DNA of 41,042 nt from a virus: positions 1-41,042 of IMG/VR virus record IMGVR_UViG_3300045988_015542, one strand, 5' to 3'. Shown in pieces: positions 828 through 41,042 of this stretch. Position 1 is the stretch's first letter. Every line of letters begins with the position of its first letter. The position numbers and the translations under genes were made by a program. The notes beneath the pieces are model-generated. The model was not told where the DNA came from. It searched no databases and saw nothing but the letters and a program-made list of their open reading frames with translations.

Positions 828-1922
828 TCAATACCTCACTCCGATGTAATCCAGAACCCGACCATAGCCAAGCCCCTTTTCGTTTGGCTTCCATAGCCCA
901 TCCGCGGGGTCAAACTCCCCGCCGCCGATGCAAAACTCATAGTGCTTCGGGTGCGTGTGCTTCATGCGCTTAAAACGATTCTCGCCTTTTTCGAGATGAG
1001 CCCCGAACGCGCAGAACATACATCCTGTTCGTTGGCAGCCCGTGCAATGCAGCGGGCAGTCCACCAGCGTTGCGTCGTAGTCGTTCTCGCCGTCGCTTGC
1101 TACAATGTCGCCATATACGCTGGCGATAGGTAGCTCGCGGTCTACGATAAACCGCAGCACGTCCTGATCTGTCCAGAAGCTCATTGGCTTGCTCATGGGG
1201 CGCTTGCCGTCAAAGGCGTTGCATCCCGTGCGCTTCCACTCTTTTTCTCTCTGCTGGCTCTCGCTCGCCATCATCGCGGTAAATGGCACACATCCGCTCG
1301 TAGCTTCGTATCGCTTGGCGGGTGCTTTTTTCATCACGTCGCAGCATTGCTCGCTAATGCGGAACGGCGCATCCTTAAGATAATGCCACTTGTCCGCCAG
1401 TTTCATCGTCGAGCAGTAAACGCCCTTCCGGTTGTATCCGGTCAGATACAGATTGACCGTTGCATCGTTCTGCCCGTGCGCGTTTTGTAAATCGCGGATA
1501 AAGCGCGCCTGTTTTTTGCCGATGACGGGATAACCGTACTTTGTCAACACCTGCCGGATATTCATCTTCGGCCGCAGCCGCACAAGCTGCACGTCGATCC
1601 GCGGGAACTTCTTCCGCAGCCAGTCCGTATATTCGTTTACGAACTTCTGAATTTCTGGATATTCCAGCCCCGTATTGACAAATACGAGGTTCAGCGGCCA
1701 CGGCGGTGTGCGAAAATGTGAGAGCCAGTTTGCGGCAAGGTAAGCCAGCACGGTTGAATCCTTGCCGCCGGAAAAGCTCACATAGACTTTCCCGTCCCAT
1801 GCTGTGAACCACTCCTCGATCTTGCCGTAGGTGATGATCTCCTTGTACTCGGTATCAAGGGACATCAGCTCTTTGGCTTTCTCGGGCAGGATCGGCGTGT
1901 TGGTGTAACCAGAAAGGCTCAT
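828..1922 (-). CDS. PAPS reductase / PP-loop ATPase family protein with C-terminal Cys cluster
   Basis: SFSGGKDST PP-loop motif. C-terminal CPLHCTGCQRTGCMFC. ATG at 1922 overlaps the methyltransferase stop (ATGA). SD GGAAGGGTGG. Confidence 0.8.
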   Translation of the reverse strand: MSLSGYTNTPILPEKAKELMSLDTEYKEIITYGKIEEWFTAWDGKVYVSFSGGKDSTVLAYLAANWLSHFRTPPWPLNLVFVNTGLEYPEIQKFVNEYTDWLRKKFPRIDVQLVRLRPKMNIRQVLTKYGYPVIGKKQARFIRDLQNAHGQNDATVNLYLTGYNRKGVYCSTMKLADKWHYLKDAPFRISEQCCDVMKKAPAKRYEATSGCVPFTAMMASESQQREKEWKRTGCNAFDGKRPMSKPMSFWTDQDVLRFIVDRELPIASVYGDIVASDGENDYDATLVDCPLHCTGCQRTGCMFCAFGAHLEKGENRFKRMKHTHPKHYEFCIGGGEFDPADGLWKPNEKGLGYGRVLDYIGVRY

Positions 1923-3196
1923 AGCGTCCACCCTTCCTCTCTCACCTGAAAGGCATCGCCGAGCTGGATGGTCTCGGGGAAATTGTGCTGTGTGGTCTGG
2001 ATGGCGTACTTGTCGATCTCGGTCGCATAGTAGGCGGTGATCTCCGCGCGCAGCTTGTCCAGCGCGATATGCCCGCAGCTCATGCCGTCGTACATCGACA
2101 GCACTTCCACCGGCTCCTCCGTCAGCCCGGTAAAATGGCTCATAATGTGGGCAATCACGTCCACGGTCCAGCCGTTGCCCAGCATTTTATACGCTTGGGT
2201 GTCGCTGACGGGAAAGGCGTATGTGTCCGGCACGGTCTGAAGGCGTTTACATTCCGTCACGGTCAGCTTGCGAATGATGTAAAATCCGTCTGCCAGTTTA
2301 ATGGGGTATGTCTTTCCTTTGATGGTGATCCGCCCGCCGCGAACCTCGTAAACTGGGATTTCTTTTCCGCCTGCCGCCTTAATTACAAACTGCCCTTTCC
2401 CGTCCGGGATAACGGGGACGGCAATCATATTGTCTTTCTGAACGGTTGTCAGGCAGTTGGTTTTCTGCGGTTCTTCGTTTACCTCGAAATACTGGAAATG
2501 TGGGATCGCTTCGTTGTAATCGTCGCGGTGGCCTTGCTCGTTGATCCTGCGTCCCACGACGCGCCCAGCCACAGGCACGGCATAAAGCCCGGTTTTTGCT
2601 CCCAGCCCTCCGCCGTTGCCGCAGAGGGTCACGCTTTTGGCGTCAGGGCTGTAAACACGGTATTGCTGGCTGTCGAAGTCCTGCCTCTTTGCGTCGTTCT
2701 CAATGGTGCCGATCCTCACCGGCTCCGCCGCCATGAGGCGCGAATAACTATGTTGCTTCTTGGGATTGTAAACGCCTGCCGATTTATAGTAATGCGCGTC
2801 CAGCGTATAGGATTTTTCCCTCCATGCAACGCCCGTCTCCAGAATGTCGCGCAAAAGGATCCCACGGTCCTCCGGCTGTTCCACATGGACTTGGCTGTAT
2901 GTACCGTCCGGCTCACGCTTGCCGACCCAGTAGAGCCGCTGTCGGTTCTGTGCGGAGACCAGAGCGGAGTTGATAAGCACCGGTTCCACGCCCAGCTCCG
3001 CCGTAATCTGCGTCCGAATGGCGGGCGACATGGACTTGTTGTTCTCGTAGAGAAAATAGTCCGGTTTGTATTTGTCGCGGGCAATGCGGTAGTTCAGGAA
3101 CAGTTCCCAGCCTATGCCGCTGGCCTCGGTCTCGCGGTTCTTGGTCTGCGCGATCGACCAATGCGTGCAAGGGCTTCCGCCGATCAAAAGTTTCAT
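1919..3196 (-). CDS. DNA (cytosine-5)-methyltransferase, circularly permuted motif order
   Basis: Motifs seen in order: GGSPC (IV), YENN (VI), QNRQRLYW (VIII), RKLTVTECKRLQTVPD (IX), GNGWTV (X), then LSMYDGMSCG (I) and ATEIDKYAI (II). SD GAGGAGGAAAGC. In-frame TGA 9 codons upstream. Confidence 0.85.
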   Translation of the reverse strand: MKLLIGGSPCTHWSIAQTKNRETEASGIGWELFLNYRIARDKYKPDYFLYENNKSMSPAIRTQITAELGVEPVLINSALVSAQNRQRLYWVGKREPDGTYSQVHVEQPEDRGILLRDILETGVAWREKSYTLDAHYYKSAGVYNPKKQHSYSRLMAAEPVRIGTIENDAKRQDFDSQQYRVYSPDAKSVTLCGNGGGLGAKTGLYAVPVAGRVVGRRINEQGHRDDYNEAIPHFQYFEVNEEPQKTNCLTTVQKDNMIAVPVIPDGKGQFVIKAAGGKEIPVYEVRGGRITIKGKTYPIKLADGFYIIRKLTVTECKRLQTVPDTYAFPVSDTQAYKMLGNGWTVDVIAHIMSHFTGLTEEPVEVLSMYDGMSCGHIALDKLRAEITAYYATEIDKYAIQTTQHNFPETIQLGDAFQVREEGWTL

Positions 3197-11171: not shown

Positions 11172-11585
11172 ATGAATATCCAAGAGGTGTGTAAACTCCG
11201 TAAGGAGGCGTTGAAACTTACCTATCAAGACATTTCCGACACTTCCGGCGTGCCGCTGTCCACCGTGCAGAATTTCTTTTCCAAGTTTTCCAAGTCGCCG
11301 TCCATCTACACCGTCGCGCCGATCTGTAAAGCGCTGGGGATATCGCTCGATGAATTTTTTGGAATTACAGAGCATTTGACGCCTACTGAAGAAACCTTGC
11401 AAGCCAGAAACGACGAGCTGGAACGCCATGTTGATGCAAAGGCTGATACCATCGAGATCATGCGGCGCGGCGTCCGTATCCGCAACGGCGTAATTGCAAT
11501 CATGTTTATCATCATCGTTTTGCTCGTTGCGTGGTGTGTGTATATCGACCTGCACTGCGTCGACTATGGGTTTTGGAGGAGGTAA
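11172..11585 (+). CDS. Membrane-anchored XRE-family HTH protein
   Basis: N-terminal HTH_3 pattern, central coiled coil, C-terminal TM segment VIAIMFIIIVLLVAWCVYI. SD AAGGTGA. Its 3' end carries the integrase SD. Confidence 0.7.
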   Translation: MNIQEVCKLRKEALKLTYQDISDTSGVPLSTVQNFFSKFSKSPSIYTVAPICKALGISLDEFFGITEHLTPTEETLQARNDELERHVDAKADTIEIMRRGVRIRNGVIAIMFIIIVLLVAWCVYIDLHCVDYGFWRR

Positions 11586-11586
11586 C

Positions 11587-12714
11587 ATGGCAAATTGTAT
11601 TAAATGCAAAGCAGCGTTGCCGGAGGGCGCGCTGTTTTGCCCTATGTGCGGTAAAAAGCAGACTTCAACCGATAGGAAGAGCAGCAAACGCAGCAATGGG
11701 ATGGGCACCGTTTATAAGCGCGGCGACACGTGGCAAATTGAGATCACAAAGGGCTATAAGGTCAAAGATGGAAAGACGCGACGCGTCCGCGCTTATAAGG
11801 GCGGATTCCGGACAAAAAAGGAAGCGCTGGAATATATTCCAACGCTGAAAAATCAGAAGAAGAAAAACAAATCTCTTACATGGCGTCAGGTATACGAGCT
11901 GTGGGAACCTACCCACCGCGCCAGCAAATCGACGCTCAACTGTTACCATTCAGCAGAGAACCATTTTTCGCAGATAGATTTCTTGCCGCTAAATGAGATC
12001 GAGATTGATGACATTCAGGCCTGCTTGGATGACTGCCCGAAGGGAAAGCGCACACGTCAAAATATGCGGACGCTTTGCGGCCTGATTTACAAGTACGCCA
12101 TCCCGCGCGGTTATGCGACACTAAATATGGCCCAATATTTAACAGTAACCGGAGAAGATGGGGCCTCACGTGCCAGCTTTACTGACGAGCAGCTTAAACT
12201 CATTAAAAACGAGATTAACGAAGTTCCATATGCAGATTATATCTACTGTATGTGTTATCTCGGCTTTCGGCCTTCTGAGTTCTTGGCGCTCGATGTTAAA
12301 GACTATGACGGCAAAAACAAGGCCATAACAGGCGGCGCAAAGACCGAGGCGGGCAAAAACCGCACCGTCACAATCTCTCCAAAAATTCAGCCCATCATTG
12401 ACAGGCTGACGAAAGACAAGATATCTGGTCCGATCTTTTGCGACGAGAACGGAAATCCATTCCGCTATGATTACTTCCGCGATGAGATATTTTATCCCGC
12501 GCTTGCAAAAATAGGGATAGAGAACCCAATTGAGAATGACCGTCACAAGTATTCACCACACACATGCCGTCACACGTTTGCAACGCTGATGAAGAATATC
12601 CCAGCATCGGACAAGGATAAACTTGAATTAATCGGCCACGCAAGCCCTGAAATGCTGCGTTATTATCAGGATGTGCGCATTGACGACCTTAAAAAGATCA
12701 CTGATGCGATATAA
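11587..12714 (+). CDS. int: Tyrosine integrase with N-terminal zinc-ribbon
   Basis: ATG at 11587 follows GGAGGAGG. CIKC..CPMC ribbon. C-terminal HTCRHTFAT, LIGHAS and YY catalytic-region motifs. attP lies immediately downstream. Confidence 0.9.
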   Translation: MANCIKCKAALPEGALFCPMCGKKQTSTDRKSSKRSNGMGTVYKRGDTWQIEITKGYKVKDGKTRRVRAYKGGFRTKKEALEYIPTLKNQKKKNKSLTWRQVYELWEPTHRASKSTLNCYHSAENHFSQIDFLPLNEIEIDDIQACLDDCPKGKRTRQNMRTLCGLIYKYAIPRGYATLNMAQYLTVTGEDGASRASFTDEQLKLIKNEINEVPYADYIYCMCYLGFRPSEFLALDVKDYDGKNKAITGGAKTEAGKNRTVTISPKIQPIIDRLTKDKISGPIFCDENGNPFRYDYFRDEIFYPALAKIGIENPIENDRHKYSPHTCRHTFATLMKNIPASDKDKLELIGHASPEMLRYYQDVRIDDLKKITDAI

Positions 12715-13299: not shown

Positions 13300-13707
13300 T
13301 TAGCCCTCGATCGTGTCCATGCAGCGCTGGATGGCTCTGCGGATGCTTTCATCATCGGCGTTGTCCAGCATTTCCTGCAACTGACGTTTCATATTATCGA
13401 TGCCGCTGTCACGGGAATAGTGGCCGCGGACGTAGTGCGTACCTCGTCTCGCGTTGGACATGTCACGGTCATAAGCGCCGCGCATACTCGACTGCCAGTC
13501 TCCGTCGCGAGAATAGCGACGCGAATAGTCTCCGTCGCGAGAATAACCGTCGTCTTCCATCATCTCGATCTTGTCGATGTTCTTGATGGTGTCGGTCAGC
13601 TTGTGCGCGATCTCAAGGTCGCCCGCGCCCAGGTCGCCCTTGCGCGCCAGCTCGTCGAGTTCGTCGCACAGCATATTGCGCAGATCATACATTGCTTTCT
13701 TACTCAT
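13300..13707 (-). CDS. Hypothetical protein with repeated YSRDGD motifs (moron cluster)
   Basis: ATG at 13707 follows GAAAGGAGAATGGAC. An 18-nt DNA repeat GTCTCCGTCGCGAGAATA occurs twice. Confidence 0.6.
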   Translation of the reverse strand: MSKKAMYDLRNMLCDELDELARKGDLGAGDLEIAHKLTDTIKNIDKIEMMEDDGYSRDGDYSRRYSRDGDWQSSMRGAYDRDMSNARRGTHYVRGHYSRDSGIDNMKRQLQEMLDNADDESIRRAIQRCMDTIEG

Positions 13708-13720
13708 GTCCATTCTCCTT

Positions 13721-14143
13721 TCACGCGATTCTCTCAACCGTCAGGTTCGAGTTGGCGAAGTTGACGGCCTGAGTGCTGGTGTTTTCCATTGCGACCGTCA
13801 GGCAGCAGCCTTTCGGGACGCAGACCTGTGCGGAAACATAAATGTTAAAGTAGTTCTCTACCGCCGCAGGCGTGACAGTCGCCGTTGCACTGGTCAGCGG
13901 CTCTCCGTTGATGGCAAGTGCCGCCGTGATGGCCTCGACCGTACCTCCGGTGGGAATAGCGATGTTGCCGCCAAAGGAGACCCGAAACAGAGCGCGGTTT
14001 TGATTGGTGATGCCGCGCAGCGTGACAATGCCGGCGCCCTGGCGATGCACGATACAGGGCTTGCTATTGACCGCCGTTTCGGTCAAGGGAACGTTCTGGC
14101 CTGCGGCTACGCTCACAATATTCGCATTTGTGTACTCTGCCAA
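13721..14143 (-). CDS. Hypothetical beta-rich protein, possibly TNF/C1q-like (BclA C-terminal-domain-like)
   Basis: TTG start with GAAAGGA 9 nt upstream. Alternating beta-strand pattern and length resemble exosporium BclA C-domains. This rests on recollection, not a search. Confidence 0.5.
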   Translation of the reverse strand: MAEYTNANIVSVAAGQNVPLTETAVNSKPCIVHRQGAGIVTLRGITNQNRALFRVSFGGNIAIPTGGTVEAITAALAINGEPLTSATATVTPAAVENYFNIYVSAQVCVPKGCCLTVAMENTSTQAVNFANSNLTVERIA

Positions 14144-14284
14144 AATAATCAGTCCTTTCTAAATGGGTCGATTTCGACCCGGTTAAAATACAGCGGCGGA
14201 GCGATTGCCCCGCCGCGTTGTCGTAGTATCGGCACGGGGCCGACCATTTTCCCCGAGTGGGGAAAAAGCTATGCTATGCAGTTT

Positions 14285-15001
14285 TCAGCAGCCGCAACAG
14301 GCAAACTGGTTGCAGCAATAGGGGTTCTGCACCGTGTAAGCCGGAATGGGAGAGGGACGCAGCTGCGAGACCAGATAGCTGTTTTGCGCCGCCTGAGATG
14401 CCGCCAGTTTCAAGCCCTGATTCTCGCTCTGGAGGTCAGCCAGTTTGCTCTGCGTCAGGAAATCGAGGATCGCGCGGCTATTGCTGTTGGCGTTGTCGAT
14501 GATGTCGCGGGTCGCGTTCTGTACGGTATTGCGCGTGTCGCACGCCTGCGCCGCCATGTCGTAGCGCACCTGGGCGATCGCGGCACGGTTCTCGCAGCAG
14601 CAATTCGCGGCCTGCATCTGCATGGCGTTGAGCTGCTGCATCAGCGCCGCCTGCTGGTTGCTGCGGGAAAGCTCGGCCTGTGCAAAGCCGTTTGCCATCG
14701 CCATGTTGGTGCCGTTGACAAGCTGCGCCTGCTGGTAAAATCCGTCGCAAAGGCCCTGATTTACACTGTCGATCTTGCGCTCGACATTGGCAAAATCAGA
14801 GGTCAGCACGTAGCCGTCGACCACGCCGCCGGAATTGCCAGCGTTGTTGCCCCAGCCGCCATTTCCCCAACCAAGAAATGCAAAAAGGAACAAAATAATA
14901 ATAAACCAGCTGCCTTCTCCGCCCCAGCCGAATCCGCCGTTGCTGGAATTTACGGGCGCAACAGGCATAGTGGCCTGAACGCCGCCGTCAGAAAGAGACA
15001 T
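14285..15001 (-). CDS. Membrane protein with G/W-rich N-terminus, Q/N/A-rich coiled coil and C-terminal Cys cluster
   Basis: SD AAAGGAGTGATACT. TM segment WFIIILFLFAFLGW. CCC in mid-protein. C-terminus NPYCCNQFACCGC. Confidence 0.65.
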   Translation of the reverse strand: MSLSDGGVQATMPVAPVNSSNGGFGWGGEGSWFIIILFLFAFLGWGNGGWGNNAGNSGGVVDGYVLTSDFANVERKIDSVNQGLCDGFYQQAQLVNGTNMAMANGFAQAELSRSNQQAALMQQLNAMQMQAANCCCENRAAIAQVRYDMAAQACDTRNTVQNATRDIIDNANSNSRAILDFLTQSKLADLQSENQGLKLAASQAAQNSYLVSQLRPSPIPAYTVQNPYCCNQFACCGC

Positions 15002-15067
15002 AGTATCACTCCTTTGAAAAATTTTTATTCATCAAATCGTGGCCACGATGTTGATTTATGTTGATGA

Positions 15068-36049: not shown

Positions 36050-37287
36050 GCGATAACTCCCATTCTTCGGCTAATCGGCTCAACTGCATATCGCAGCGCA
36101 TCGATCAAATGATTTTTCTCGTCTGGATAGCCGCTGATCCAGTTTCCGTCTTTGTCTTGATCGTATTCATAGTTCACAAGCTCATCGTAAGCATGCGGCG
36201 TGCGCCTGCGGTCAATAACGATCTTCCTCCGCTGTAGCCACTTCATTCCGTACGTCACGCTGTCAGGGCCTTTTACGGCAGCTTTGGCGGGTAGTCCCAT
36301 CGCGCGGAAGTCCGCAACACTTTTAGGCTCCGCGCTGTCGCAGATGATATAAGCGTCAGTGTAGCCTTTTGCCTTAATCATGCCCGCGCTCTGCTCGTTG
36401 GAAAGTTTGTTTTGATAAATCTCATCTATCAGGTAAATTGTCTCCCGCGCCTTGTCGTAGTGTGCGCGGATAAATGCAAACGGGTCAGGGAACCAGCCAT
36501 AGTCCACGCCCTGATAAATCCGGTCAAAATGGTTGATTTCTTCGTCGGTGATCTCCCGCAGCTCCAGCTTGTCAAACACATTGCCGCCCGTGCCTACCGG
36601 AATGCCGAGATACTCATGCTGATATGCCCGTTCGTCTGTTTCTTTTAGGTGTTCCGCTTCTGCAAGAAACTGTTCTCCCAGCCATTCAGGCGGTGCTTGC
36701 AGATACGTTGACTTGTGGCACAGGCGGTCAGCGCGTTCTTCCAAGCTGTCTTTGTTCGCCCAGTTGTCGCGCGAGATCGGCGGGTTGTAGCTCTCAAAGT
36801 TCCAAAACACCGAGCCGCCGCGCATGGTCGACTGCAAAATGTTTCGGATTTCTGCACGTCCGGCAAACTGGTCTTTCTCTTCAAAGTGCGTCACGGCGAT
36901 ATAGCCAAACGGCACCTTGATAGACTTGATCTTCATGGGGTCGTCAGCGCCCCGGAACATGATCTTTTGTCCGGTAGGCTTATAAATCAGCTCCATCGGG
37001 GATACTTTCGCTTCCCAATACGCCGCCATGCCCAGCTCGCCGATTGCCCAGATATACTGAGCATACACGCTATCGCGGATCGTGTTTGCTACCTTGCGCA
37101 GCACAAGCGCATGCGTTCCCGGGTTGTTTATCAGCAGCAGGGGGACGAGCACGGACACCGTGGACGACTTCAGCGAACCTCTCCCACCGCTGAAATCGTA
37201 GTGTGTGTGCCCATGATGGAACACATCGTGAGCCACGTCGTAAAAAGCCGAGCCGATTTTTTCTGACAAGAGAATATCAGACATCAA
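36046..37287 (-). CDS. terL: Terminase large subunit (PBSX/Terminase_3-like)
   Basis: 413 aa. Walker-A-like GGRGSLKSS. C-terminal nuclease region. Synteny terS-terL-portal. Confidence 0.85.
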   Translation of the reverse strand: MMSDILLSEKIGSAFYDVAHDVFHHGHTHYDFSGGRGSLKSSTVSVLVPLLLINNPGTHALVLRKVANTIRDSVYAQYIWAIGELGMAAYWEAKVSPMELIYKPTGQKIMFRGADDPMKIKSIKVPFGYIAVTHFEEKDQFAGRAEIRNILQSTMRGGSVFWNFESYNPPISRDNWANKDSLEERADRLCHKSTYLQAPPEWLGEQFLAEAEHLKETDERAYQHEYLGIPVGTGGNVFDKLELREITDEEINHFDRIYQGVDYGWFPDPFAFIRAHYDKARETIYLIDEIYQNKLSNEQSAGMIKAKGYTDAYIICDSAEPKSVADFRAMGLPAKAAVKGPDSVTYGMKWLQRRKIVIDRRRTPHAYDELVNYEYDQDKDGNWISGYPDEKNHLIDALRYAVEPISRRMGVIA

Positions 37288-37690
37288 TAACTACCTTGAC
37301 GGAATCCGTGCTTATCTTTGTCTCGTTCACTTCACGCCAACCAAAATTGCAGCCAAGCGAGAATTTCGCACCGTTGGCACCGTCCTTATCGTAGAGCCGA
37401 GATTCGGCGTATTCTTCACATCTGGACTTCGCGCGCGTAACCGTGTCCGCGAACTCCGGCCTTGCCTGATAATCCAGCAGTGCTTGTCTTCCTGTGAATC
37501 CAAGCGCCAATGCAAGCCCTGTGATTGTCGGGGGTTTTGCATTGATAATAATCGGCACCCCGTACTTATCTCGCACAGCGCAGCCGTCATCTCCGATAAA
37601 CGGTTCGCCTTCGCACTTTTTGAAGTAAACGTCAATAGCTTCCTGCATTGCCTTTACGCTTTTCCATTTTCTTGGCGCTCCGCCAGCCAT
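37277..37690 (-). CDS. terS: Terminase small subunit
   Basis: The pattern PPTITGLALALGFTGRQALLDY...AKSRCEEYAE is typical of Firmicute phage TerS. SD AAAGGGAGTGAGCGT. Confidence 0.75.
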   Translation of the reverse strand: MAGGAPRKWKSVKAMQEAIDVYFKKCEGEPFIGDDGCAVRDKYGVPIIINAKPPTITGLALALGFTGRQALLDYQARPEFADTVTRAKSRCEEYAESRLYDKDGANGAKFSLGCNFGWREVNETKISTDSVKVVIDV

Positions 37691-37966
37691 ACGCTCACTC
37701 CCTTTCGTTTTGCTACCAGCCCCCGCCCCTTGGCCTTACATAGCAGACTTTACCCGCCCCGAGGGGCATACACATTTGCCGTCTTCCCGCTTAGATTGTC
37801 ACACGCTACCGGCAACTACGCTCCGAAAAGTCGTAGCCCCTATTCCGTCAGGTCAAACCGGTCTTGACGTATCAAGACAAGCGCAGTTTTCAGCAAGCAT
37901 TGTCATTTCCATGTGAGCCATGACGACAACGGTCTCACATTGTCCGGGCGCTACCCGGCCTCTTGT

Positions 37967-38078
37967 GCAGATGGTGAGGATTTGCACCTCACATAGCCTA
38001 ACAGCGTCGGCCTCCACCGCTTTACTGGGCGGCACCCGAACTGTCGTTTGTAGCGTCTACCTATTCCGCCACATCTGC
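37967..38078 (-). ncRNA. tRNA-like module 2 (112 nt, expanded central region)
   Basis: 7-bp acceptor GCAGATG/CATCTGC. Type-II-like D-arm GCGGAATAGGTAGACGC. T-arm TGAGG-TGCAAAT-CCTCA. About 60 nt lie between the D- and T-arms. There is no CCA. Confidence 0.45.
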
Positions 38079-38137
38079 TTTTTGCCATCAACAGCCAGCT
38101 ACGCACCATTCGGTGTTTCACTACCCTACGGCGTTAC

Positions 38138-38205
38138 GCAGACGACAGGACTTGAACCTGCATCCTCCTCCGGAAGCGGTGCTCTGCCGATTGAGCTACG
38201 TCTGC
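38138..38205 (-). ncRNA. tRNA-like module 1 (68 nt, truncated anticodon arm)
   Basis: Acceptor GCAGACG/CGTCTGC. D-arm GCTC-AATCGGCA-GAGC. T-arm GCAGG-TTCAAGT-CCTGT. Only 18 nt lie where about 22 are needed (CCG-CTTC-CGG mini-hairpin). There is no CCA. Confidence 0.5.
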
Positions 38206-38312
38206 TTATGTCCCCGCTGGGCCACATCGTCGAGAGGTGCGCGGGGTCCTGTCATTTTTGCCCTCAACCGCCCGCCCCGAAGGGCGGGCTATCAAGGGAG
38301 GAGGAAACAGAT

Positions 38313-38360
38313 GAAAAAGCAGAGGCGTGAAGAGCCTCGCCCCATCACGCCTCTATTTTT
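38313..38360. terminator. Bidirectional Rho-independent terminator (ends the early operon on the minus strand)
   Basis: 10-bp stem AGAGGCGTGA/TCACGCCTCT with a 14-nt loop. T-runs on both sides (plus ATTTTT; minus GCTTTTTC). Confidence 0.75.
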
Positions 38361-38379: not shown

Positions 38380-38413
38380 TTCCCCTTAAAAGGGGAATTT
38401 TCAAAATTTTTTT
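38380..38413 (+). terminator. Second hairpin plus T-run, plus-strand orientation
   Basis: TTCCCC-TTAAAA-GGGGAA followed by TTTTCAAAATTTTTTT. Overlaps the stop codon of the minus-strand HTH gene. Confidence 0.45.
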
Positions 38414-38640
38414 AGATAATCGTCCACGGTCATTGGATTATCCGTCCGTCCAAGCAGATAATCGACCGACACCCCGAACTTGTCGGCAATGCTTTCCAAT
38501 GCTTCCGTTGTGGGCGTAGCCTCTCCCGCCTCGTACCGCCTCACCGCGTCACGGTGCAGACCGCACAGTTCAGATAGAACATATTGCTTTATTCTCTTTC
38601 TCTCCCGTAAGCGCTTCAAGCGCTCGGGAAACGCGTTCAT
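38401..38640 (-). CDS. XRE-family HTH protein (last gene of the early operon)
   Basis: ATG at 38640 (MNAFPERLKRLRERKRIKQYVLSELCG...EAGEATPTTEALESIADKFGVSVDYLLG). ATGA overlap with the upstream gene. Confidence 0.75.
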   Translation of the reverse strand: MNAFPERLKRLRERKRIKQYVLSELCGLHRDAVRRYEAGEATPTTEALESIADKFGVSVDYLLGRTDNPMTVDDYLKKF

Positions 38641-38840
38641 GCCAGCACCTCCTCCGGTCGGAAACTCTCTTTGATCTCCTTGCCGTCTACCATGATCGCC
38701 ACGGTCACATAGCGTCTCTGCGGATGGATGTACGTCACCGCGCCGGTGCGGAGCGGGTACAGCTTTTCGCCGCGCGCCTTGCCCGGAAACTCCTCCGGCA
38801 CCGTCATAAACTGCGCCCGCACCTTGTCGCCTACTCTCAT
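38637..38840 (-). CDS. Small hypothetical protein (67 aa)
   Basis: ORF in track, translationally coupled on both sides. Confidence 0.55.
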   Translation of the reverse strand: MRVGDKVRAQFMTVPEEFPGKARGEKLYPLRTGAVTYIHPQRRYVTVAIMVDGKEIKESFRPEEVLA

Positions 38841-39052
38841 TCCGCACCTCCAAACGCCTGCTCAAAGGTCAACCCGCTCTCCCTCAGCAGCGCCTTGATG
38901 GTCTCGATGGTACGCGCATTATTTCCTGACAGCCACCACCAAACATTGCTGTACGAAATGCCTACCGCCTCGGCTAACGCCATTCTCGTCTGATTTTTCC
39001 GCAGCAAAGCCGATTGCAGCCGCGGATATACGCAATATGCGAATTCTGTCAT
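38837..39052 (-). CDS. HTH DNA-binding protein (71 aa)
   Basis: ATG at 39052 follows GGAGGAACGGAAAGAA. Contains QTRMALAEAVGISYSNVWWWLSG. Confidence 0.65.
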   Translation of the reverse strand: MTEFAYCVYPRLQSALLRKNQTRMALAEAVGISYSNVWWWLSGNNARTIETIKALLRESGLTFEQAFGGAE

Positions 39053-40661: not shown

Positions 40662-41042
40662 TCAGGCATCCTTCATCCCCTCCAATGCCGCTTCCGCCTC
40701 CTCGCGGGTGAGGAATACGGTCTTGCCAAATGAGACAGGATTGACCCCGTACTGTTCTCTTAATCCATCTACTGTAGAAAATACAATGGTCGTAACATGA
40801 CTTCCAATGTTCGCAAATTCTATGACGCATTTGCGGGTGTGCCGCATCCCGTCAAGATTCGCCCACACCGTATCGCCCACCTTGCACGGCAGCACCACCA
40901 GCCGCCCGTCCTTGTCGGCCTCGGCCAGCTCGCGCAGGCGGGCAACGCCCTCCTGCTCCGCATCACGCATTACGATGTACCGTCCTTCCGCGTCTGCTCG
41001 CGCAAATTCGGCACAGCGTTCCGGCGTCAGCCCCGTGTCCTC
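40662..41042 (-). CDS. Hypothetical early protein, C-terminal part of the junction-spanning gene (see 1..247)
   Basis: ORF 40662..40970 is open to the window edge, and the same reading frame continues through the 94-bp repeat. Confidence 0.7.
   Translation of the reverse strand, partial: EDTGLTPERCAEFARADAEGRYIVMRDAEQEGVARLRELAEADKDGRLVVLPCKVGDTVWANLDGMRHTRKCVIEFANIGSHVTTIVFSTVDGLREQYGVNPVSFGKTVFLTREEAEAALEGMKDA
40949..41042. repeat. Exact 94-bp direct terminal repeat, copy 2
   Basis: Identical to 1-94. Confidence 0.95.

Follow-up and report, generated by a model that had tools for sequence, protein, structure and literature searches.

A conserved family of phage tRNA-like RNAs whose anticodon arm is replaced by a stub: probable non-decoding tRNA mimics

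The 41,042-nt stretch of viral DNA analyzed here (IMG/VR record IMGVR_UViG_3300045988_015542, hereafter the window) carries on its minus strand, at 38137..38205, a tRNA-like RNA gene, designated element A, that was recognized by its sequence, Rfam tRNA score, cloverleaf fold and family membership. Element A very likely specifies a conserved non-decoding tRNA-like RNA, and it is probably a working tRNA mimic and not a broken tRNA, because the short-arm form is conserved in well over a hundred related phages. As judged from the aligned sequences, members of this family (family A) are built like a tRNA in the upper body and elbow but have the anticodon arm swapped for a 13–14-nt stub. That the conserved non-decoding RNA also acts in trans as a mimic is our best explanation of the whole, held tentatively and with slightly less than even confidence.

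Element A comprises 68 nt plus a discriminator G at 38137; all features described below likewise lie on the minus strand. Read from 38205 to 38137, it begins with GCAGACG-TA-GCTC-AATCGGCA-GAGC-A-CCGCTTCCGGAGGAGGAT and ends with GCAGG-TTCAAGT-CCTGT-CGTCTGC-G. The 5′ strand of the acceptor stem, GCAGACG (positions 1–7, 38199..38205), pairs with the 3′ strand CGTCTGC (38138..38144) in seven of seven Watson–Crick pairs; the D arm GCTC-AATCGGCA-GAGC (38181..38196) has a perfect 4-bp stem and contains A14, A15, G18, G19 and A21; and the T arm GCAGG-TTCAAGT-CCTGT (38145..38161) has a 5-bp stem with a G.U as the first pair. With U8, A9, the 4-bp D stem, A26, a variable loop and the Levitt pair, the core is complete, in agreement with a preliminary description that had reported intact acceptor, D and T arms. 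The same description considered the centre too short for an anticodon arm, and this held: exactly 18 nt (CCGCTTCCGGAGG plus AGGAT, 38162..38179) lie between A26 and the T stem, a spacing for which a tRNA needs 21–22 nt, and they make up a 13-nt stub in place of the 17-nt anticodon arm, then a 5-nt variable loop. The CCG/CGG stem with a CTTC loop, previously put forward as the only pairing of this segment, is possible but is one of several; ViennaRNA chooses CUUCC-GGA-GGAGG, and neither pairing is kept across the family, in which the sequence is what is conserved. No CCA is encoded, also as noted before, and the tail, in which TAA follows the discriminator G, is atypical among relatives.

The Rfam tRNA model (RF00005) scored element A at 52 bits against a gathering score of 29 (E = 1.9e-8), aligning it with a compressed anticodon arm of 9 nt versus the model's 13 (4 nt deleted), and its minimum-free-energy fold is a cloverleaf. 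ARAGORN labelled it tRNA-Gly(tcc), with the anticodon at position 32. This parse is forced: it removes C25 and A26 from the perfect D stem, builds an "anticodon stem" of five layers from three Watson–Crick pairs together with A.A and G.A, and allows a variable loop of only 3 nt. Because it breaks the D stem and contains two mismatched layers, a standard 5-bp anticodon stem was not obtained, and the irregular-arm parse of the preliminary description survived this check. Element A lacks the 5-bp stem and 7-nt loop (U33, purine 37) with a conserved anticodon that mark a decoding tRNA. The bacterial tRNA-Gly identity set comprises U73, G1:C72, C2:G71, G3:C70, C35 and C36. Element A departs from it at G73 and A3:U70, whereas the genuine phage tRNA-Gly genes of the same arrays carry U73 on a different body. 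That element A is an unusual working tRNA-Gly(UCC), as the ARAGORN label and the CUUCCGG of this sublineage (readable as a 7-nt anticodon loop with U33 and G37) would allow, is thus very improbable: in addition to the wrong discriminator and to the broken D stem, two stem mismatches and 3-nt variable loop that it requires, most of the family, including most of its majority type, has G or A at "33", "36" is variable, and ARAGORN called zero genes in the family consensus. Among other RNA classes, mascRNA-menRNA (RF01684) did not match element A at the gathering score or at E ≤ 10, YrlA (RF02553) reached 14.5 bits (E = 9.6), below its gathering score of 69, and no tmRNA was found in it by ARAGORN or Rfam, the third acceptor pair being A3:U70 and not G3:U70.

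Relatives were collected with the pattern GCAGACGTAGCTCARTCGGYAGAGCA, which matched 84 viral contigs, and with a second, acceptor-free pattern, for which the listed matches were used; pooled, these gave at least 83 distinct sequences, whose sources among the matches listed are gut-phage contigs, well over 100 in number, and two Oscillospiraceae-type MAGs. Family A was defined by the body (G)CAGACG...GTAGCTCARTCGGYAGAGCA, a centre CCGC-N-Y-C-N-R-GAGG of 17–20 nt, a T arm and a matching 3′ acceptor strand. Element A is matched by both search patterns and aligns without rearrangement. The consensus of the centre, 17–20 nt long, is CCGC[G/A/T][C/T]C[N][G/A]GAGG, and a second stub type, CCCC-CGAAAU-GGGG, occurs on the same body; typical members score 49–52 bits with the Rfam tRNA model. 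The truncated arm is conserved among these homologues, with 17–20-nt centres throughout the at least 83 distinct sequences listed. Recent decay from a normal tRNA, which the preliminary description had kept as an alternative, finds no support for the family, as the long-arm form is rare (about 10 copies with a 5-bp/7-nt arm, including L001 at the same position) and irregular, with two extra nucleotides after position 26, a 9-nt variable loop and A73. Short-arm copies outnumber long-arm ones roughly ten to one. The phages carrying family A have Oscillospiraceae-type gut Clostridia as hosts, and no member was found among 50,697 records of annotated or cultured phages.

In an alignment of 46 distinct relatives (alignment A1), 99.1% of the stem cells are paired overall and 100% in the acceptor stem, and G18, G19, C56 and A58 are invariant. 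Across the family, two T-stem pairs change in a compensatory manner (CG 33 / UA 12 and UA 28 / AU 13), other acceptor stems are equally intact (GGTTTCG/CGAAACC, GCAAGCG/CGCTTGC and GCAGATG/CATCTGC), and the Levitt pair, between position 15 and the last base of the variable loop, is G15:C48 in 68, A15:U48 in 10 and other in 5 of the 83 sequences listed. This pattern suggests that selection acts on the RNA structure of family A. Some of the "compensated" acceptor stems are identical to that of a neighbouring phage tRNA-Asn and may reflect recombination, not stepwise covariation, and A15:U48 is confined largely to one or two sublineages, so that it represents few independent events. The stub itself is also preserved: the T1 stub sequence (CCGCRCCNGGAGG) is strongly conserved, which is unaccounted for by a role needing the upper body alone.

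It was also considered that element A might be a DNA-level site, for attachment or packaging, that merely resembles a tRNA, given that tRNA genes are frequent integrase targets and that element A adjoins terS, near which pac or cos sites frequently lie. This is extremely improbable. The integrase lies about 26 kb off, the 3′ half of element A has no second copy in the genome, the entire cloverleaf is present and not just a 3′ fragment, family A is found in other genomic contexts, and the compensatory stem changes together with strand-specific G.U pairs indicate selection at the RNA level.

The earlier conclusion that element A cannot decode was reinforced by the family, in which the short centre is conserved and the base N of the stub loop can be any of the four, depending on the member; a loop base varying so freely leaves no conserved anticodon. 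Known signals for anticodon-independent charging include G3:U70, G-1 and a long variable arm, and none of them is visible in the sequence of element A (A3:U70, no G-1, no long variable arm). Their absence, together with the failure to find a linked transferase or synthetase-like gene and a variable discriminator (A 68, G 14 and T 1 in the 83 sequences listed), makes it improbable that element A is an aminoacyl donor, that is, an RNA charged by an anticodon-ignoring synthetase for use by a transferase and excluded from translation by its short arm. Such a role would suit the 3′ ends of the family, since NCCA or a near (one-base) variant is encoded by 82 of the 83 distinct sequences among the matches listed and the acceptor stem and A73 are strongly conserved, and it has precedents in tRNA-Other of Bacillus cereus and in irregular tRNAs that are charged but unused in translation (PMC5389517).

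Upstream of element A lies a conserved 42-nt leader hairpin, GAC-CCCGCG-[23-nt loop]-CGGGG-AC-ATA (38207..38248, minus strand), which ends 1 nt before +1 of element A. It was found in 52 copies in the loci examined, ahead of various NCCA-ending RNAs. Its stem is paired in 96.3% of cells versus 36–59% in slid controls, four of its seven outer pairs have changed on both sides, and its U.G wobbles occur on the minus-strand reading. Further upstream, a terminator-like hairpin with a T run (38322..38338, minus strand) follows an XRE-type regulator gene. Between this terminator and terS, the small terminase gene (37277..37690, minus strand; PHROG 606, E = 2e-22), no further terminator-like site was found, and no sigma-70-like promoter was found between it and element A. 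terS is followed by terL and portal and opens the packaging/late operon, which lies downstream of the array of ncRNA cassettes.

The same array contains a second tRNA-like module, element B (37966..38078, minus strand), with a tRNA-Leu-type D arm, a 59-nt centre, the acceptor stem GCAGATG/CATCTGC, the T loop TGCAAAT and the tail A-CAA. It was called neither by ARAGORN nor, even at E ≤ 10, by Rfam. Its relatives L042 and L081 share this body but have about 105 nt in its centre, and the tail of L081 is ACCA as compared with ACAA in element B. A 92-nt cloverleaf-shaped NCCA RNA is present in the same locus as elements A and B.

Element A is the sole sequence without an NCCA-like tail among the 83 distinct sequences listed. 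It is also a singleton variant, with no second copy in the viral and metagenome collections searched; the metagenome search for the exact variant returned its cousin L350 and one chance match within a coding sequence, nothing else. From its nearest cousins, L210 and L350, it differs at four or five positions, clustered mostly in the 3′ half. With its singleton status, its G-TAA tail and its T-stem G.U, this copy could be drifting, and the ACAA tail of element B in the same phage is a similar change. However, that element A is a decaying remnant, its CCA lost, of a family that may otherwise function is unlikely. Nothing is lost from the seven acceptor pairs, the D stem, the T loop or G18/G19, the G.U that has replaced G:C in the T stem still pairs, the Rfam score of 52 bits equals the 49–52 of typical members, and the tail change falls at a recombination junction with a different downstream module. 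Moreover, CCA-less tRNA genes are normal in Firmicutes, where RNase Z and the CCA-adding enzyme mature their transcripts.

The genomic contexts of family A are diverse. A member occurs within multi-tRNA arrays in the order Thr-A-Gly-Met, and another copy lies upstream of a DNA-polymerase-like gene. The flanks of the copies diverge right up to +1 and directly past NCCA, which marks family A as a self-contained gene, and in many loci other conserved modules start directly after NCCA. Among the phages with this terS, 9 of 80 carry the element, and some phages with a 100% identical TerS have no element A or another cassette instead. By this distribution, element A is an accessory, fast-turnover cassette, a pattern typical of host-interaction or counter-defence cargo. 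Clustering of ORFs around family A at 118 distinct loci, in which spurious high-GC ORFs that overlap the RNA accounted for many clusters, yielded as recurrent genes only the XRE regulator, the terminase and HU-like genes, and thus no protein partner. The window was found to encode neither a tRNA enzyme nor Ro60 nor any defence gene in the PADLOC list, PADLOC gave zero hits to defence or toxin genes in the lysogeny region, and the scanned ORFs, among them the single ORF of 497 aa, contained no TROVE domain.

The arrangement at this locus could alternatively represent a cis-acting processing signal, similar to mascRNA or t-elements, whose tRNA body recruits RNase P and RNase Z/3′ trimming on the late (terS) leader. 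It would leave a hairpin-protected 3′ end upstream and defined 5′ ends downstream, with the stub-tRNA as a by-product. In line with this, element A sits in the untranslated gap from the XRE terminator to terS without an intervening terminator, the conserved covarying hairpin stops 1 nt short of the predicted RNase P site, much as a structured MALAT1 3′ end lies just upstream of mascRNA (PMC11693755, PMC8457004), conserved modules begin directly past NCCA in many loci, and plant mitochondrial t-elements provide a precedent (PMC1920247). It would also account for the repeated loss of the anticodon arm in several unrelated stub-arm families, because that arm would be superfluous in a signal that depends on RNase P and RNase Z alone. 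Nevertheless, such a signal would be redundant inside the arrays of ordinary tRNAs in which family A also occurs, and close relatives do without element A. An ordinary tRNA would serve equally well, yet the stub form prevails over the long-arm form and its sequence is conserved. We therefore consider a purely cis-acting signal possible but rather unlikely.

In the mechanism that we favour, in which transcription, each processing step, the uncharged state and the role as a decoy in trans are all inferred from sequence, element A would be transcribed from the minus strand downstream of the XRE-gene terminator, and RNase P would cleave at 38205, just past the conserved leader hairpin. Because no CCA is encoded, RNase Z would then cleave after the G at 38137 and the CCA-adding enzyme would complete the end, whereas in most relatives, in which CCA is encoded, the 3′ end would be trimmed instead. 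Recognition of the elbow is enough for RNase P and RNase Z, and other systems provide examples of tRNA-like RNAs that lack an anticodon loop yet undergo processing and CCA addition (PMC11693755, PMC4201824). The product would be a stable RNA of about 70 nt, unable to reach the decoding centre; with neither access to decoding nor known charging signals, an uncharged tRNA look-alike is proposed to accumulate. Acting in trans, the mature RNA would occupy a factor that reads the acceptor, T arm and elbow of tRNAs, the favoured candidates being a host enzyme that targets tRNAs in defence or as a toxin, or a factor of tRNA processing. The intact elbow, the 12-bp acceptor/T stack and the hairpin 5′ of +1 would fit a processing handle, an enzyme mimic and a nuclease bait alike; a role in trans is preferred over mere punctuation because the arrayed neighbours of family A are already RNase P substrates. 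Points against the mimic role include that no partner protein co-occurs and that element A is the least typical member of its family. To our knowledge, the known phage counter-defence tRNAs act by decoding and none as decoys. Phage tRNAs as such are an established counter to tRNA-cleaving defences (PMC10264068, PMC11464382, PMC11555353).

Several known RNAs resemble element A in part. mascRNA and menRNA, cut from vertebrate MALAT1 and NEAT1, are tRNA mimics with an intact T arm, a D/T elbow and a compact loop for the anticodon loop, cloverleaf or L-shaped and not aminoacylated (PMC11693755, PMC8457004), and the layout of element A, with a structured hairpin 1 nt upstream of +1, would be compatible with a similar release by RNase P and RNase Z followed by CCA addition, its own processing being predicted. 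However, in mascRNA the D arm is reduced and the single-stranded linker residues of tRNA are missing, whereas the core of element A is full; no sequence relationship exists, and element A is phage-borne and bacterial, with most of its relatives encoding CCA. [quoted passage not shown] They thus share the mimicry of a tRNA body, but they carry a Ro60-binding stem and adjoin a Ro60/Rsr gene, while the acceptor ends of element A are free and it has neither a Ro-binding module nor a neighbouring Ro60 gene. Plant mitochondrial t-elements are tRNA-like structures that direct RNase P/Z cuts and set the ends of neighbouring RNAs (PMC1920247); unlike element A they are degenerate and lineage-specific, and they are not known as conserved mobile cassettes or from tRNA arrays. 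Among irregular metagenomic tRNAs (allo-tRNAs, 8/4 and 9/3), which lie in polycistrons, some occur in phages and some were proposed to be regulatory ncRNAs and not decoders (PMC5389517), but these have an altered acceptor/T branch and keep the anticodon arm, whereas element A has a canonical 7/5 branch and a truncated anticodon arm. Canonical phage tRNAs occur likewise in tRNA arrays and at operon junctions, with the same body and the same predicted maturation; they differ in having a 7-nt anticodon loop and in functioning by decoding, and element A can be no substitute for a cleaved tRNA because it lacks the anticodon arm. T4 species 1 and 2, the C4 RNA of P1/P7 and the MHV68 tRNA-like RNAs are small stable viral RNAs that are matured by the tRNA-processing machinery and do not decode. 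They are unrelated to element A in sequence and architecture, and we know of no description of any of them as a full tRNA body with an anticodon-arm stub. In the literature searched, most subscription journals lying outside its scope, no earlier description of anticodon-less, pseudo- or tRNA-like genes in phages was found.

Other ideas about the stub and the body were tried and rejected. In many T1 copies the stub contains CAGGAGG and CCTCCTG lies at -30, and in the window GGAGGAGG of the stub could pair with CCTCCTCC about 95 nt upstream. Such pairing is not general: among 102 distinct contexts, only one context lineage (26 copies) has the complement, and it was rejected because the complement there is the reverse complement of the ribosome-binding site of a divergent gene. 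A small reading frame starting at the AUG of GGAGG(N)AUG is not conserved, its frame shifting (TATGC versus TATGTC), and this AUG stems from canonical variable-loop positions. A single conserved stub helix received no support from covariation, since the three possible Watson–Crick pairs are invariant, and the predicted pairings vary between variants. Finally, a cellular tRNA as the model for the mimicry was not found: the 5′ half is shared by no tRNA in 185,579 species representatives, the two matches both lying in phage-like regions of MAGs.

More broadly, element A may belong to a widespread class of phage "anticodon-less tRNAs" borne on mobile ncRNA cassettes and serving as decoys for, or inhibitors of, the host factors by which tRNA bodies are recognized, a generalization that we regard as doubtful at present. 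Its members may have a full tRNA body with the anticodon arm replaced by a stub or a different hairpin, a conserved leader hairpin often lying in front, and their targets may include, for example, tRNA-directed immune nucleases or nucleotidyltransferases. The idea is backed by at least six further stub-arm families with unrelated acceptor stems that recur on tens of viral contigs, and by the occurrence of element B and the 92-nt NCCA RNA at the same locus.

Family A is abundant in human-gut phages of Oscillospiraceae-type hosts. Being about 70 nt long, its RNAs are easily synthesized, and the natural variants (stub, GAAA-loop stub and long arm, with or without CCA) lend themselves to direct tests. 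For annotation, ARAGORN misses family A genes or gives them a spurious anticodon and Rfam reports a plain tRNA, so that counts of phage "tRNAs" and arguments from codon usage may include non-decoding mimics. tRNAs are a current focus of phage–host conflict, in which hosts cut or modify them to abort infection and phages supply replacements. An RNA of the element A type would be no such replacement, because it retains the body of a tRNA but not the anticodon arm. It would point to a different use of tRNA mimicry, either the sequestering of a tRNA-binding factor or the recruitment of maturation enzymes that shape phage transcripts.

Element A, the tRNA-like RNA gene at 38137–38205 on the minus strand, reads from 38205 to 38137 as GCAGACG-TA-GCTC-AATCGGCA-GAGC-A-CCGCTTCCGGAGGAGGAT-GCAGG-TTCAAGT-CCTGT-CGTCTGC-G, followed by TAA. 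As the preliminary description had it, the acceptor, D and T arms are intact: the acceptor stem is Watson-Crick paired at 7/7 positions, the D stem has 4 bp with A14, G18, G19 and A21, and the T arm has 5 bp, including one G.U, and the loop TTCAAGT. The shortened anticodon space was likewise borne out: A26 and the T stem are separated by only 18 nt, whereas a tRNA requires 21–22 there. The Rfam tRNA model scored element A at 52 bits (gathering score 29, E = 1.9e-8), placing 9 nt against the model's 13 in the anticodon arm, and ViennaRNA folded it as a cloverleaf whose centre is a small hairpin. ARAGORN labelled it 'tRNA-Gly(tcc), anticodon at position 32', its sole tRNA call in the genome; in the drawing, C25 and A26 are taken out of a perfect D stem, the five-layer stem holds only 3 Watson-Crick pairs plus A.A and G.A, and the variable loop is left at 3 nt. 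This parse is no standard tRNA fold, and the standard ARAGORN fold that the preliminary description had named as evidence against itself did not arise.

The window is a complete genome in circular assembly, with an exact 94-nt direct repeat (bases 1–94 = 40949–41042), of a temperate gut phage of ~40.95 kb that encodes a tyrosine integrase (11494–12714), RecT, a YqaJ-type exonuclease, an endolysin and a holin. Element A is sited in an untranslated gap that runs from an XRE-type regulator gene (38401–38865, minus strand) and its terminator (38322–38338) on the upstream side to the small terminase gene terS (37277–37690), which is followed by terL and the portal gene. No tRNA enzyme, Ro60 or PADLOC-listed defence gene was found encoded in the window. 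A 497-aa ORF adjoining the integrase (13571–15064, plus strand), without match in Pfam, PHROGs or PADLOC, may be accessory cargo expressed in lysogeny. Elsewhere, a PAPS-reductase-like (PP-loop) protein lies beside a DNA methyltransferase (828–1931 and 1919–3196, both minus strand), a pairing often seen in phages, of uncertain role, for which no connection with the tRNA-like RNA was found.

The 26 nt at the 5′ end of element A, degenerate at two positions, were searched for exactly and matched 84 viral contigs; a second search, yielding lower-bound counts, took as its anchor the 3′ strand of the D arm and the centre (the nucleotides from A26 to the T stem) and placed no constraint on the acceptor. 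After parsing, family A, the relatives sharing this body, comprised at least 83 distinct sequences, nearly all with a short centre. Members were also present in two bacterial MAGs (Dysosmobacter; uncultured Clostridia), in phage-like regions beside ordinary tRNAs; no cellular tRNA with the family's 5′ half was found in 185,579 species representatives, and no member in annotated phage records. The great majority carried the T1 centre, CCGC[G/A/T][C/T]C[N][G/A]GAGG plus a 4–6-nt variable loop (17–20 nt in total). The same body also bore the T2 centre (CCCC-CGAAAU-GGGG plus ATCGAT), two more centre kinds and, in ~10 copies including that of locus L001 at the homologous position, a long-arm form with a 5-bp stem, loop TTCCCGG, 2 extra nt past position 26, a 9-nt variable loop and A73. 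The preliminary description had allowed for a normal tRNA in the homologues and recent decay here; the relatives lend this no support, the short stub being the common, conserved state of the family.

Tails among the 83 listed sequences were ACCA (61), GCCA (13), ACAA (5), ACGA (2), TCCA (1) and GTAA (1). The absence of CCA that had been noted in the window copy, whose tail is G-TAA, is real, yet atypical among the listed sequences, this copy being the only one without NCCA or a one-base variant of it. Its stub variant (TTCC) had no second instance in viral or metagenome collections, and its nearest cousins, loci L210 and L350, read CCGCTCCCGGAGGAGAT with tail GCCA. Since every stem is intact, the Rfam score matches the value for typical members, and CCA-less tRNA genes are normally matured in Firmicutes by RNase Z and the CCA-adding enzyme, the window copy is probably functional; that it is decaying or drifting is unlikely.

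Alignment of 46 distinct copies showed 99.1% of stem cells paired, compensatory change in two T-stem pairs (CG 33 / UA 12 / UG 1; UA 28 / AU 13), and invariant G18, G19, TPsiC-loop C and loop A58. The Levitt pair covaried among the 83 listed sequences (G15:C48 in 68, A15:U48 in 10, other in 5), the A15:U48 state lying mostly within one or two sublineages and so representing few independent events. The free-acceptor search also recovered the centre on the intact stems GGTTTCG/CGAAACC, GCAAGCG/CGCTTGC and GCAGATG/CATCTGC, and one chimera with a mismatched acceptor was seen among the family sequences. Because GGTTTCG/CGAAACC is common to family A copies and a neighbouring phage tRNA-Asn, some of the acceptor-stem variation may reflect recombination rather than stepwise covariation. 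Beside such pairing, the alternative that element A is an att or pac site acting at the DNA level was regarded as extremely improbable. In the T1 stub, the three possible Watson-Crick pairs never vary and are uninformative on a helix either way, and the predicted pairings differ variant by variant. The hairpin proposed earlier (CCG/CGG with CTTC) stands as one possible pairing, but several others are possible and it is not kept in relatives; what is conserved in the stub is its sequence.

The claim that the element cannot decode gained support from the family. The loop base N varies among A, G, C and T from member to member, the would-be U33 position is G or A in the majority type, and the same body accepts the different stub T2. 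ARAGORN called no gene in the family consensus, nor in most copies. Genuine tRNA-Gly(TCC) and tRNA-Gly(CCC) genes from these phage arrays carry U73 on another body, unlike family A with its A73 (G73 in the window copy) and A3:U70. Family A thus reads as non-decoding, and an odd decoding tRNA-Gly, the reading that ARAGORN's label would imply, is very unlikely. Some synthetases can charge without anticodon reading where G3:U70, G-1 or a long variable arm is present. Since each of these is absent from the sequence of element A, its aminoacylation is unlikely, and a role as a charged non-ribosomal donor was considered quite improbable.

A spacing-restricted scan gave at least six other stub-arm families with unrelated acceptor stems in tens of viral contigs. 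Those within the viral loci L230–L349, whose acceptor stems are intact, included GCGATTG..ACCA (33 copies, centre GCAGGCTGAATGC+GCGTC), GGCTATG.. (31 copies, centre GGGCGCACCCCGTCTATTGC), GCTGATG.. (11 copies, GCAC-CGGAA-GTGC) and TGGAAAG.. (9 copies, GGAA-ACAA-TTCC). Truncation of the anticodon arm recurs among phage tRNA-like genes. A further tRNA-like module, element B, lies ~60 nt downstream of element A (37966–38078, minus strand); it has the acceptor GCAGATG/CATCTGC, a tRNA-Leu-type D arm (GTGGCGGAATAGGTAGACGC), a 59-nt centre, a possible 6-bp T stem with T loop TGCAAAT and the tail ACAA, and was called by neither ARAGORN nor Rfam. Its body recurs in loci L042 and L081 with a ~105-nt centre (tail ACCA in L081), and, as in family A, the central arm appears to have been swapped on a constant tRNA body. 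Other irregular 'tRNAs' stand beside family A in the arrays of L083, L088, L117, L138, L156, L165 and L002: a 72-nt tRNA-?(ga) whose loop is not of 7 nt, tRNA-Phe(gaa) at 83 nt, tRNA-Thr(cgt) at 93 nt (L002), and tRNA-Trp/Gly genes in which the D arm is odd.

Directly past the element B tail starts an ~80-nt conserved block (GAGGCCGGGTAGCGCCCGGACAATGTGAGACC...; 37883–37962, minus strand), which at other loci starts directly past the NCCA of family A copies and also occurs in GenBank MT836871 (89% identity). Further on, GCCGGTAGCGTG (37801–37812, minus strand) equals at 11/12 positions the RfaH ops element, GGCGGTAGCGTG; related motifs lie at ~37948–37958 and ~37700–37712, Rfam gave a weak JUMPstart match (16.2 bits, E = 2.1), and GGTAGC is repeated in three conserved modules upstream of terS. 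The ops-like and GGTAGC motifs may relate to late-operon antitermination.

Upstream of terS the gap is a mosaic, 296–1281 nt long from the XRE gene, in which non-coding modules are shuffled independently. A family A element occupied it in 9/80 phages with closely related TerS, and some phages with 100% identical TerS were without the element or carried another cassette. As flanks of family A copies diverge up to +1 and directly past NCCA, the mobile unit is the mature RNA. The family also occurs within multi-tRNA arrays of larger phages (e.g. Thr - A - Gly - Met) and upstream of a DNA-polymerase-like gene, and no co-travelling protein partner was found around its loci. The most frequent gap occupant (48/80 loci) is a 92-nt RNA, ACGGCAU...AUGCCGU-ACCA, seen in L004 (~2826–2920) and 47 other terS-related loci and also in L002 (~1306–1400); it is not in the window and has no Rfam family. 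Its fold is a four-way junction (z = -4.0) closed by a 7-bp stem; one arm is capped by GUAA, the central arm is long, a further arm is of the 4-bp/7-nt kind, and the RNA ends in an NCCA tail. Compensation between variants is seen in the closing and inner stems.

Directly 5′ of element A lies a 42-nt leader hairpin (38207–38248, minus strand), 52 copies of which, in loci L001–L166, end 1–2 nt ahead of +1 of the downstream RNA. Its stem covaries (both-side change in 4/7 outer pairs; 96.3% of cells paired vs. 36–59% with slid partners), its U.G wobbles lie on the minus-strand reading, and its 23-nt loop, GCACCUCUCAACGAUGUGGCCCA, is nearly invariant; it has no Rfam family. In related phages it stands before many different NCCA-ending RNAs. 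Those following it across the copies include family A, ordinary tRNA-Ile and tRNA-Trp, the 92-nt cloverleaf RNA, a GCGGCG...TCCA RNA and a B-type element. A skipping-rope RNA (RF02924; L134 1430–1524, 45.3 bits, above the gathering score) shares an ncRNA cassette array with a family A copy, and the sequence downstream of the L134 leader hairpin may correspond to this match. Most family A copies are without this leader and instead have another GC-rich hairpin, then ATAT or CAAT, just ahead of +1.

The main rival, conceivable if rather unlikely, is a cis-acting processing signal of the mascRNA or plant mitochondrial t-element kind (PMC1920247); it is favoured by the structured hairpin that lies just upstream of the predicted RNase P site and by the modules starting directly past NCCA. 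A trans-acting RNA is argued for by the persistence of family A in ordinary tRNA arrays, where punctuation would be redundant, by its behaviour as fast-turnover accessory cargo, and by the strong preference for the anticodon-less over the long-arm form. For RNase P and RNase Z, recognition rests on the acceptor/T stack and the D/T elbow, and the anticodon arm is dispensable. Since such recognition suffices and precedents exist elsewhere, the element A transcript would be cut by RNase P/RNase Z at 38205 and past 38137, gain CCA and build up as an uncharged tRNA look-alike. In other systems, tRNA-like RNAs that have no anticodon loop do undergo processing and CCA tailing (PMC11693755, PMC4201824, PMC4919913). 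The RNA would then act in trans, as a mimic occupying a factor that reads the tRNA body; the whole chain, from processing to this role, is proposed tentatively, with a little less than even confidence.

Like mascRNA/menRNA, YrlA-type Y RNAs and t-elements, element A is a non-decoding tRNA mimic. It lies outside these groups: no Rfam match to the mascRNA family was found, the YrlA model gave 14.5 bits against 69, with no Ro60 neighbour, and element A, unlike any of them, retains the whole canonical tRNA core and has lost the anticodon arm alone. The irregular 8/4 and 9/3 tRNAs are its mirror image, with the acceptor branch altered and the anticodon arm kept (PMC5389517). Anticodon-arm-truncated tRNA-like phage genes had no description in the literature searched, most subscription journals lying outside it. 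In sum, element A is a tRNA-like gene that is conserved, is under structural constraint, does not decode, and travels as an accessory cassette.
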